Assembly: GCA_964016885.1 (NCBI GenBank)
Contig: CAXHJY010000079.1
Span: forward strand, 1 to 64,000
Source of the DNA: Eledone cirrhosa
Taxonomy: Eukaryota
Direction of reading: 5' to 3'
DNA length: 64,000 nt
The translations under genes and the position numbers were made by a program. This document shows positions 661 to 60,609 of the stretch, piece after piece. Every line of letters starts with the position of its first letter. The first letter of the stretch is position 1. The notes below the pieces were generated by a model. It worked only from the letters and a program-made list of their open reading frames with translations, made no database searches and was not told where the DNA came from.

Positions 661-848
661 GTACGTTATTCCGGGTTGAATCGGAGGTAACCACAGTAAG
701 TAAGGTACTCAATACATAGCAGAGTATAATAGTTTTAATATAGATGAGATTCTACAGGACTAGAACTGTTTCATTCATTAGAAATCATCATGATTTCTAA
801 TGAATGAAACAGTTCTAGTCCTGTAGAATCTCATCTATATTAAAACTA
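661..848 (-). mobile_element. Penelope-like terminal fragment in (TA)n: unique tail plus 59-bp perfect palindrome
   Basis: Arms 730-788/790-848; same family as 32222-32370, 38180-38245 and 45030-45065; fold-back centre falls in the TGATGA core. Confidence 0.65.
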
Positions 849-3800
849 CATATATATATATATATATACATATATATATATATATATATACATATATACA
901 TATATATATACATATATATATACATATATACATATATACATATATATATATATACATATATCTATATATACATATATCTATATATACATATATATATATA
1001 TATACATATATATATATATATATATATACATATATATATATATACATATATACATACATATATATATACATATATCTATATATACATATATATATATATA
1101 TACATATATATATATATATACATATATATATATATACATATATATATATACATATATATATATACATATACATATATATATATACATATATATATATATA
1201 TACATATATATATATACATATATATATATATATACATATATATATATATATACATATATATATACATATATATATATATATACATATATATATATATATA
1301 CATATATATATATATACATATATATATATATATACATATATATATATATATACATATATATATATATACATATATATATATATACATATATATATATATA
1401 TATATACATATATATACATATATACATATATATATATATATACATATATATATACATATATATATATATACATATATATATATATATATACATATATATA
1501 TATATATACATATACATATATATATATACATATACATATATATATATACATATACATATATACATATACATATATATATATACATATATATATATATATA
1601 TATACATATACATATATATATATATACATATATGTATATATATATATACATATATATATATATACATATACATATATATATATACATATATGTATATATA
1701 TATATACATATATATATATATACATATACATATATATATATATACATATATATATATATACATATACATATATATATATATACATATATGTATATATATA
1801 TATACATATATATATATATACATATACATATATATATATATACATATATATATATATACATATACATATATATATATATACATATATGTATATATATATA
1901 TACATATATATATATATACATATACATATATATATATATACATATATATATATATACATATATATATATATACATATACATATATATATATATACATATA
2001 TGTATATATACATATACATATATATATATATACATATATGTACATATACATATATATACATATATGTACATATACATATATATATACATACATACATATA
2101 TATATACATACATATATATACATATATATATACATACATATATATACATATATATATACATACATATATATACATATATATACATATATATATATATATA
2201 TACATATATATACATATATATATATATATACATATATATATATATATATACATATATATATATATACATATATACATATATATATATATACATACATATA
2301 TATATATATACATACATATATATATATATACATACATATATATATACATACATATATATATATATACATACATATATATATACATACATATATATATATA
2401 TATATATATATATATATATATATATATACATATATATATATATACATATATATACATATATATATATATACATATATATATATATATATATACATATATA
2501 CATATATATATATATATATATATATATATATACATATATATATATATATATACATATATATATATATATACATATATATATATATATATATATATATATA
2601 CATATATATATATATATACATATATATATATATATATATATATATATACATATATATATATATATATATATATATATATATATATATACATATATACATA
2701 TATATATATATATATATATACATATATATATATATACATATATATATATATATATATATATATATACATATATATATATATATATACATATATATATATA
2801 TATATATATATATATACATATATATATATATATATATATATATATATATATACATATATATATATATATATACATATATATATATATATATACATATATA
2901 TATATATATATATATATACATATATATATATATATATACATATATATATATATATATACATATATATATATATATATATATATATATACATATATATATA
3001 TATATATATACATATATATATAATATATATACATATATATATATATATATATATATATATATATATACATATATATATATATATACATATATATATATAT
3101 ATACATATATATATATATATATATACATATACATATATATATACATATATACATATATATATACATATATATATACATATATATATACATATATATATAC
3201 ATATATATATACATATACATATATATATACATATATACATATATATATACATATATATATACATATATATATACATATATATATACATATATATATACAT
3301 ATATATATATATATATATACATATATATATATATATATACATATATATATACATATATATATACATATATATATAATATATATATACATATACATATATA
3401 TATATATATACATATATATATACATATATATATATATATACATATATATACATATATATACATATATATACATATATACATATATATACATATATACATA
3501 TATATACATATATACATATATATATACATATATATATATACATATATATACATATATATACATATATACATATATATATACATATATACATATATATATA
3601 TATATACATATATATATATACATATATATATATACATATATATATACATATATATATATATACATATATATACATATATATACATATATATATATACATA
3701 TATATATATATATACATATATATATATATATACATACATATATATATATACATACATATATATACATATATATATATATACATACATATATATACATATA

Positions 3801-58890: not shown

Positions 58891-60609
58891 CTGAAATTTA
58901 AGATATACACGCATATATGAATAAATAAATAAATATATATGTATATACATATGTACACACACACACACGCTCCATTCCACCCTAAATTACCTCGGAAATG
59001 TTACCTTTTAATCAATTTTTATTGTCTGAAGAAATCACGATATTTATCATCATGGAAATATGTATAACAGCTCAATTAATAAAGGAACCTAACATCTTCA
59101 ACTTCGCATTTTCCTCTTTATTAATATACTCCGCCGTCCTTGGTTTTAGAATGTAATATGACGTTGAGTGCTAGAAGTGTATTGCATCCTTGTGTACCGA
59201 ATTTACATATATATGTGTGTGTGTGTGTGTGTGTGTGTGTGTGTGTGTGTGTGTGTGTGTGTGTGTGTATATATATGTATGTGTGTGTCTGTATATATAG
59301 AAGGAATTTGTAGTTTACTTGAAGCATTCTATATGGTATATAGAATTCGAAGTTTGAAAGTCACGACAATGCAGGGTTTGGACAGAGAAAAATTAAAACA
59401 TAAAAAGGATAAAAAGTAGGGTTTGTTCTTTTTTGGCTGTCATATCCTCTAGCTTTCTTATTTGGTAATGTTTAGATTCAATTATGAAATAACTAATTAA
59501 TTAACTACTACAAAAATATCCTCAGCAATGCCTTGAATAAAGGATTTGATTCAAAATTCCAAGAATATTACTGAATACAACAGACACCTGAAGAAAGCCA
59601 GAAGGCAGAATGTTTAAAACATTGCAACCATAACAACGAAGACGAACAAAGTCACTAGTCTGAGGAAATCAGCTTGTATAGTAATGATAATCCCTCATCT
59701 CAGAATTTCAGACATAAAAAAGAAATAAAATTAAAAAAATAATAAAAATAATATCTATTCTCAGTAATTGCTTCAGGCTATTACAAATGCCAGTCAGCAA
59801 TAATGACGAGAAAATATTTTGTCTAAAACACTGTGGTTTTAAAATATAGAAGATATATCAGAAAATCTCTATTGCAGACTTCAAAAAGAGAGCTAAAAGC
59901 ATTTTTGTAGAGAGGCTGGTGAGTATATCTAAGATAATATATATACTCTTATCAATGGGTACAAATGTAAAACTTGGGCACCTTAATCTGTAATCAGAGT
60001 TTGTTGTGCATTATAAATATTTTCTTGACATTTTAGTGTCAGCAAGATTGTCACTGCTGTCATCATCATCATCATCATCATCATCATCATCGTCATCAAT
60101 ATCATCACCAAAATCCTCATTGTCATAATAATTGTTTCTACTTTTGGCACAAGGCCAGCAATTATCCCAGTGCATTACTGGTACTTTATTTTATCGACCC
60201 CGTAAGGATGAAAGGCAAAGTTAACCTCGGCGGGATTTGAACTCAGATCATAAAGGGAGGTAACTCTATGCTTCTCAGCATGGCGTCCGGCCCTCTACCA
60301 ATACTGCCAATCCACCGTCATAATAATGATAATAGTTTCTGATTTAGGCACAATATTTTGGAGGGTTAGAGAAAGTTGATTAAATCGACCCAGTGCATTA
60401 CTGGTATTTCATTTTATCAATCCCATAATGATGAAAGGCAAAGTTAACCATGACAAGATTTGAACTCAGAACATAAAGGGACGTAACTCAATGCTGTAAA
60501 GTATGTTGTCCGAAGCTCTACCAATACTGCCAATCCACCACCCTAATATATATATACACACACACACTCTTACTACTCTTTCGTGCATCTGTTCTCCTCC
60601 CACCTGAAC

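Follow-up and report, generated by a model that had tools for sequence, protein, structure and literature searches.

The reverse transcriptases (RTs) of Penelope-like elements (PLEs) are the sister group of TERT, and the RTs of long interspersed nuclear elements (LINEs) recognise 3′ stem-loops, for example those of eel UnaL2 and of the R2 3′ untranslated region (UTR). This work deals with hairpins in PLEs of Eledone cirrhosa and starts from a stretch of 64,000 nt, hereafter the window (assembly GCA_964016885.1, contig CAXHJY010000079.1, positions 1 to 64,000 of the forward strand). The closest described elements are those of the Hydra clade, which, in the passages used of Craig et al. (2021, PMC8557442), have a C-terminal GIY-YIG, the motifs RWK, DKT and CxCX5C, a canonical hammerhead, (TA)n targets, an inverted 5′-truncated partner and a tail at one end; one Hydra family is reported there from Octopus bimaculoides. 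For the Poseidon element PAc, the passages used of Frangieh et al. (2024, PMC11167929) describe two internal RT starts bounding the tail, extension of both target strands, a need for RNA downstream of the starts and a predicted dimer. Animal retrozymes that lack long terminal repeats (LTRs), called non-LTR retrozymes, have been proposed, in the parts covered of PMC7229834 and bioRxiv 10.64898/2026.07.22.740005, to be mobilised by PLEs. The Hydra clade, its hammerheads, its TA targeting and its tails are already known; the twin hairpins that we report are a real and apparently undescribed cis element of this known clade.

A preliminary description of the window had noted one bulged stem-loop recurring in short inserts near (TA)n, and had proposed it as a cis element common to a diverse PLE lineage that targets TA. 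Our analysis bears this out and identifies the lineage as the Hydra clade: the motif is attached to open reading frames (ORFs) for RT plus GIY-YIG, shows compensatory changes and has a positional link to the start of reverse transcription. Judged by their sequences, the window inserts are ends of Hydra-clade PLEs. The one hairpin seen earlier is hairpin 1 (HP1) of the parent elements; a second one (HP2) exists too and was left uncopied in the window inserts. We consider it rather probable that Hydra-clade PLEs carry two tandem bulged leader hairpins and that their insertions, ending a few bases 5′ of either, reflect docking of the RT on each hairpin with a cDNA start just upstream.

The leaders were read in 12 families gathered by N-terminal protein similarity alone. 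An intact leader runs hammerhead, HP1, 78–166 nt, HP2 and ATG, and hammerhead, HP1 and ORF are continuous in L186, L188, L192, L198, L199 and L203. HP1 was present in 12/12 leaders and a canonical HP2 in 10/12, compared with 0.35 and 0.007 families, respectively, in 1000 leader shuffles (the script's own count of 11 leaders with HP2 included one unrelated upstream match in family B). The motif is 25–45 nt long and its core is broader than first described: R-C-U-C, a first upper pair, a variable top, a 2-nt 3′ bulge (UU, UC or UA) and G-A-G-Y, after which RCU is frequent. In the lower stem, the analysis supports the variants ACTC/GAGT, GCTC/GAGC, GTTC/GAAC, GCAC/GTGC and GCAT/ATGC. The first two of these had been proposed before, together with ATTC/GAAT (at 29501 and 36955), which is absent from every ORF-anchored leader and is unconfirmed.

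Insertion ends cluster 2–7 nt 5′ of HP1 (site A, tail-less) or of HP2 (site B, tailed). Among 125 TA-flanked ends from the 10 families with both hairpins, 120 lie 2–12 nt 5′ of HP1 or HP2 (99 of them at 2–5 nt), with uneven counts: families C and J supply 86 of the 125, four families give four or fewer and one more gives five. The reference leader of family C is 5′-truncated, and its A ends were taken from inverted-arm mapping, outside the 125-end mapping. The tailed end tracks HP2 as the spacing between the hairpins varies over its whole range. Since the ends lie just 5′ of either hairpin, the tail would be the stretch between two start sites, with HP2 uncopied; likewise, a visible hairpin marks a tail-less end and an uncopied second hairpin a tailed one. 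The 59127 family provided a prospective test of HP2: one of its 25 loci continues past the usual end and shows HP2, and 14/17 scorable copies end 3–7 nt before it (7 were unscorable). That locus, L329, has a second hammerhead core after HP2 and no ORF, and the family may be non-autonomous.

The short inserts agree with this geometry. Genome searches with four window copies gave inserts between TA runs that are made up of an inverted arm and of a sense arm carrying a type I hammerhead, then an AT-rich stretch, the hairpin and finally a tail. The inverted arm ends just before the hairpin: in the three largest families, TA-flanked inverted arms stop 4–5 nt before the stem in 10/17 cases, 5 nt in 23/26 and 4 nt in 11/12, and 11 of the 15 copies in the 20653 family have an arm that stops 4 nt 5′ of the stem. 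All the end-mapping data would fit a reading in which the hairpins direct an RNA cut or 3′-end formation a few bases 5′ of each, the RT then starting at ordinary RNA 3′ ends, and nucleases that process RNA typically act at a fixed distance from a stem. We regard this main rival as unlikely, because in vitro the Poseidon PLE starts internally with no such cut (PMC11167929, passages used) and because independent cuts alone do not explain how the two kinds of end are paired within an insertion.

This pairing is nearly strict. In 40 long loci, 23 same-family outward-facing end pairs could be classed, and they comprised 22 AB, one BB and no AA pairs (P = 3e-6 against 0.5). AB pairing would also follow if only site B primed and the tail-less arm were copied from the first cDNA, as a second strand or by fold-back, stalling at the base of HP1, which would account as well for the short palindromic inserts with their self-complementary centres. 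However, the tail-less arm is the long, ORF-bearing one, measuring several kb, in L189, L192 and L310, while the tailed arm measures ~1 kb or less (only these three were used, as L296 and L298 seem to have two long arms, so that the label ‘long arm’ cannot be relied on there); the long arm can be either one. Because a copy cannot outrun its template, fold-back copying is contradicted for long elements and may still hold for some short palindromes. Moreover, it does not account for the shared geometry of the two ends relative to one motif, and as a general account we find it very unlikely. Returning to RT docking on each hairpin, TAT or ATA occurs within 10 nt 5′ of the hairpin in 18/22 cases in E. 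cirrhosa and 25/40 elsewhere, against backgrounds of 0.40 and 0.23, an enrichment consistent with pairing to a TA primer.

On a wider mechanism our judgement is evenly balanced: a cross-phylum, clade-wide pair of RNA docking hairpins would let a dimeric RT-endonuclease prime two cDNAs from opposite (TA)n strands, each just upstream of its own hairpin, and this twin start would build both ends, cause the PLE tail and the inverted structure, and let hammerhead retrozymes hijack PLE proteins. The RT-endonuclease, probably as a dimer, would hold HP1 and HP2; both strands of the self-complementary (TA)n target would be nicked; each TA primer would pair with the UAU/AUA preceding a hairpin; and the two cDNAs, primed from opposite target strands, would have their 3′ ends joined head to head, giving an inverted structure that is tailed at one end. 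This tail would run from site A to site B, with HP1 always inside, and non-coding hammerhead arrays that keep both hairpins would be mobilised in trans. [quoted passage not shown]

Two other functions can be weighed against the same data. The hairpins could act at the DNA level, as structures or sites that the GIY-YIG endonuclease recognises while resolving the insertion; in this line, the opposite strand would have G·T where the outer pairs are A·C, and the D. virilis Penelope endonuclease needed tail sequence for plasmid cutting (as cited in the passages used of PMC11167929). Nonetheless, HP2 lies 3′ of site B and is hence missing from the inserted DNA at the tailed end, G·U pairs are present in the sense fold and the side of the bulge is strand-specific, which makes this role highly improbable. 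We attach slightly less weight still to the idea that the hairpins serve the translation or stability of an uncapped, ribozyme-cut RNA, with the position of the ends being incidental. Every intact leader does have the hairpins placed after the hammerhead and before the ATG, but they are also retained in non-coding tandem arrays, and ends follow each hairpin within a few bases despite the variable spacing. A second role in translation may exist.

The non-coding tandem hammerhead arrays L189, L118, L200 and L052 are built of units of ~480–560 nt that contain both hairpins, of the GTTC/GAAC type, and in L189 and L052 the last unit ends just before HP2. By inspection, all four fit the definition of non-LTR retrozymes, that is, tandem non-coding units with a type I hammerhead, and in this and in unit size they are like the retrozymes of PMC7229834 and bioRxiv 10.64898/2026.07.22.740005, as given in the parts covered. 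What the arrays share with Hydra PLEs are the twin hairpins and the end rule, and those parts of the retrozyme texts yielded no hairpin or stem-loop signal.

The preliminary description had likened the hairpin to a LINE-like 3′ stem-loop ~50 nt before the end. This view had to be abandoned, as the hairpin of intact elements belongs to the 5′ leader, where it follows the hammerhead, precedes the ATG and is one of a tandem pair. Moreover, a LINE-type recognition stem-loop lies upstream of the RT start and is copied, while the ends here lie 5′ of each hairpin and HP2 is missing at tailed ends. The likeness is that of a small RNA structure recruiting its own RT, here a proposed recruitment, and common to non-autonomous partners; unlike LINE stem-loops, the hairpins would be downstream of the start, doubled and behind the polymerase. 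In hepadnavirus epsilon and in the template-flanking stems of telomerase RNA, a bulged or flanking stem bound by the RT fixes where copying starts or stops, an analogy by function only, and, unlike in both of these, priming here would be on the target DNA.

The parent elements were reached through a profile search of fetched DNA, which found a divergent PLE fused to a motif-bearing end; searching with this PLE gave the intact elements. ORF-bearing parents were found for the 706 family (family B; L192, L198 and L199), for the 7715 family (family C; L188 runs through HP2 into a Hydra-type ORF) and for the 24210/24884 family (family J; leader and ORF in L050 and L304–L306). Genome searches returned no ORF-bearing parent for the 17932/18035, 20653, 58379 and 59127 families, and no such search was made for 40158 and 48564. 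YRDD and a C-terminal Y[IV]GxT (GIY-YIG) were present in 10/10 ORFs, as were the change of DKG to DKT and the linker CxCX5C, and the N-terminal motif RW[KR] was found in nine of the ten proteins (RWK in family K, RWR in most others). A loose pattern for the CCHH endonuclease motif was negative in 8/10 proteins, and the two positives (families A and B) have, on inspection, a single cysteine before YIG, in contrast to the CxxC of Neptune-like copies. By eye, these protein motifs agree with published Hydra proteins. Pfam detected neither the RT nor the GIY-YIG domain in the two Hydra-type proteins scanned, and a homolog search gave 433 proteins, almost all without names, and no information on identity. 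In a tree, 19 Hydra-type RTs stood apart from six other PLE RTs of the E. cirrhosa genome with support of 100/98, with long branches flagged.

Hydra-type elements were also seen inserted into (TA)n, and a motif search predicted a canonical hammerhead in the pseudo-LTR, which is degenerate in families D, G, J and K. The unit measures ~3 kb in families J and K and ~5–6 kb in A, B, D, E and F, so that the descriptive trait of a short element (<3 kb) does not apply. Families J and K offer numerous full-length reading frames. There are at least 12 Hydra families in this one genome, with protein identity of only ~35–50% between families and surrounding leader sequences that cannot be aligned. Thus, the elements are like the Hydra clade as given in the passages of PMC8557442 in their C-terminal GIY-YIG, RWK/RWR, DKT, CxCX5C, canonical hammerhead, (TA)n target, inverted partner and one-end tail, and differ in their longer tails (~70–170 nt vs 30–40 nt), the several units of 5–6 kb and the number of families in a single genome. 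In families D, E and F (L307, L314 and L310), the RT thumb region is followed by ~110 inserted residues of low complexity.

Other candidates were considered and discarded. Neptune-like and other PLEs, the top Pfam matches for GIY-YIG, were rejected as parents, as their ends and leaders are without the motif. A reading as a selenocysteine insertion sequence (SECIS), prompted by in-frame TGA flags, was dropped: the stops were ORF ends or lay after frameshifts, and the motif is without what we take to be the SECIS core. A DNA hairpin of the Helitron/HINE type was rejected after hammerheads and PLE ORFs were found attached. The genome also holds at least six Neptune-like TA-associated PLE families (L021–L070), most with degenerate hammerheads and short tails of their own; one of them has a TGTTC..GAATA look-alike in the middle of the 3′ UTR, distant from any end and possibly due to chance.

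In the window, all 15 hairpin strings listed before were present at their positions. A scan with a descriptor that required a lower stem, 3 bp or more in the upper stem and a bulge on the 3′ side recovered 9/10 ACTC/GAGT copies and the GCTC/GAGC copy at 18035, supporting the recurring fold, and missed the 59127 copy, which has an interruption in its first upper pairs. To set a chance level, we fixed microsatellites in place, dinucleotide-shuffled the remaining DNA and counted copies ending 35–85 nt before a TA run. The window held nine such copies compared with 0.16 ± 0.37 (100 shuffles, maximum 1), and 40 random 10-kb stretches of the genome held 24 compared with 0.55 ± 0.8 (20 shuffles, maximum 3), so that copies near TA runs far exceed those in shuffled DNA. 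The mirror motif with a 5′ bulge occurred neither in the window nor in the 40 stretches, in line with the claim that the bulge is always on the 3′ side. The motif density in the E. cirrhosa genome (3.0 Gb) is ~1 per 15–20 kb (23–24 in 400 kb); 185 candidate matches from 1.2 Mb clustered into 25 printed groups, two of them other than the motif, which puts the number of families at about twenty or more. A first look at the genome gave 4912 candidates for family C (7715) and 3660 for the 32262 family.

Some details of the preliminary description need correction. The hairpin does not keep to the last ~50 nt before (TA)n: this distance is ~42–76 nt in the window, greater in other families, and not fixed. 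The inserts, described as mostly unrelated, do belong to many families, but 706/32262, 7715/58619 and 24210/24884 make up three of them. Hammerheads, listed only at 706, 20653 and 32262, also occur upstream of 59127 and, as a half, upstream of 7715, and in the 18035 and 58379 families the longer copies carry them. Family copies show that the ‘gt’ bulge at 18035 arose by mutation from TT. The best 150 of 332 Rfam matches were miRNA matches driven by microsatellites plus one tRNA-like short interspersed nuclear element (SINE), with no family for the motif among them. A covariance model, weak for long hairpin tops, recovered 6/15 of the listed copies in the window at E <= 0.32, plus four other weak matches.

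In metagenomes, a scan based on the N-terminal alignment found 27 loci at 34–50% identity, of which 26 were scored (one of two same-contig loci was dropped) over the 190 nt before the ORF. At least one hairpin was present in 23/26 and two in 14 (13 without an off-pattern match), compared with 5.6 and 0.6 in shuffles; some of these leaders are cut short or replaced. The GCAC/GTGC and GCAT/ATGC lower-stem compensations were found in these loci, and three usable ends lie ~2, 4 and 11 nt before the hairpin. A covariance model from 19 E. cirrhosa hairpins had 38 matches in the metagenome loci: 35 in sense in leaders or 3′ copies, two in inverted terminal pieces and one inside an ORF. Read by eye in the published material covered, 3/6 Hydra consensuses carry the motif, namely Hydra-2_Amil (coral), Hydra-1_Ajap and Hydra-2_Ajap (sea cucumber); in Hydra-1_Ajap it is present twice, and the consensus begins 2 nt before the first.

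Pairing was kept in 96.1% and 94.5% of cells in two alignments, with 27 and 50 two-sided changes vs 8.6 and 15.5 in shuffles, which ignore relatedness, the second alignment being itself fitted to the model. Upper pair 2 uses four Watson–Crick types. These data bear on whether the motif merely reflects shared ancestry or chance, without function. Its core letters CUC/GAG are almost invariant and related elements share motifs; on the other hand, leaders cannot be aligned between families whose proteins are ~35–50% identical, upper pairs change on both sides and shuffles yield far fewer matches. Of all the explanations, this is the one that we find hardest to believe.

Several observations weigh against RT docking on a conserved pair of hairpins. 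In families A and B, the second hairpin is reduced to a GCAC..GTGC stem without a clear upper stem or bulge, and these families, including the 706 copy of the window, nevertheless have sharp tailed ends 6–9 nt before the reduced stem. Two insertions, L195 and L388, one of them a palindrome of the 58379 family, are tailed at both ends. End offsets are blurred by TA microhomology and reach 7–12 nt in some families. The three inner lower-stem pairs are invariant in both alignments and change only in the GTTC/GAAC arrays and three metagenome hairpins, which means that the signal is partly one of sequence, not of covariation; the descriptors themselves demanded these pairs as well as the first upper one, and the outer pair shows A·C and U·C mismatches. 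Among the published consensuses, Hydra-1_Obim and Hydra-1_Amil gave no clear match at the consensus ends read, and Hydra-1_Crog is degenerate. Finally, 10 end regions of other PLE clades were without the motif (none with the CTC core, one weak TTC match), and so the motif in its present form cannot be a universal cause of tails. As a separate observation on families A and B (e.g. L186 and L198), hammerhead stem I with its flanks fits a loose hairpin descriptor (YTTC..TA GAAN), and HP2 is reduced in exactly these families.

Table 1. Hairpins and hammerheads located in the window (positions of the whole stretch)
Feature	Position	Strand	Remarks
HP1, family B	706..726	-	short fold-back insert ~661-850; inverted arm stops ~3 nt 5′ of the listed hairpin string
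Type I hammerhead of the 706 insert	753..791	-	core mutated to ATGATGA
HP1, family C	7715..7740	-	fold-back insert ~7662-7860 with 3′ half of hammerhead
HP1, separate family	17932..17974	-	head to head with the 18035 insert
HP1 (GCTC/GAGC, family bulge TT)	18035..18067	+	longer copies with hammerhead; similar to family G leader
HP1, uniform fold-back family	20653..20694	-	insert ~20600-21133
Hammerhead upstream of the 20653 hairpin	20750..20802	-	limits approximate
HP1, family J	24210..24247	+	previously listed as a ‘weaker’ copy; in fold-back insert
HP1, family J	24884..24928	+	
Possible decayed copy	29501..29525	-	no (TA)n behind; unconfirmed
HP1, family related to A and B, tailed end	32262..32282	-	
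Type I hammerhead, palindromic loop III	32317..32355	-	
ATTC/GAAT look-alike	36955..36980	+	unconfirmed, possibly chance
Hammerhead of the same group, directly followed by (TA)n (tail-less end)	38198..38236	-	absent from the preliminary description
HP1, 3-nt bulge	40158..40187	+	
HP1	48564..48604	-	
HP1 in fold-back insert	58379..58405	-	inverted arm ends 3-4 nt 5′ of stem; longer copies with hammerhead
HP1, diverged family C relative	58619..58644	-	
Hammerhead upstream of the 59127 hairpin	59023..59070	+	limits approximate
HP1	59127..59170	+	genomic copy L329 continues into HP2

Other features of the window surround these inserts. A decayed relative of the 58619 family at ~39860-39965 (+) retains only the 3′ half of HP1 and the tail. 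Exons of a plexin gene lie at ~23570-47240 (-), with a RasGAP domain match at 25750-26088 and no Pfam match for three other putative plexin exons; the introns of this gene host several motif-bearing inserts. A nuclear mitochondrial DNA segment (NUMT) at 16700-17200 (+) is a fragment of mitochondrial cytochrome b (Pfam Cytochrome_B, E=3e-40 under code 5). A LINE RT fragment with a weak RVT_1 match lies at 28215-29500 (-), other LINE-like pieces lie near 8854-9110 and 36150-36520, and tRNA-derived SINE copies lie at 17776-17846 (with an Rfam tRNA match), 21908-22209 and 24307-24644.

As to novelty, the passages and supplement parts covered of PMC8557442 mention no hairpin, and the twin hairpins were undescribed in our full-text literature searches and in the passages covered of PMC8557442, PMC4209133, PMC7229834 and bioRxiv 10.64898/2026.07.22.740005, with subscription papers, Repbase and Dfam outside the search; the octopus repeat paper PMC13282606 was also consulted in part. 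At issue are how PLE RTs recognise their RNA and why their insertions have the long-puzzling optional tail; the one in vitro study gave two internal starts and, in the passages used, no signal for them (PMC11167929). The fixed geometry of a 25–45-nt motif to both start sites makes the question of recognition testable with a few mutants. The motif is also a marker to find and delimit Hydra-clade ends, and it provides a physical connection from retrozymes to the elements that help them. Should it prove transplantable, it would serve as a small tag to direct RNA-templated insertion into (TA)n.

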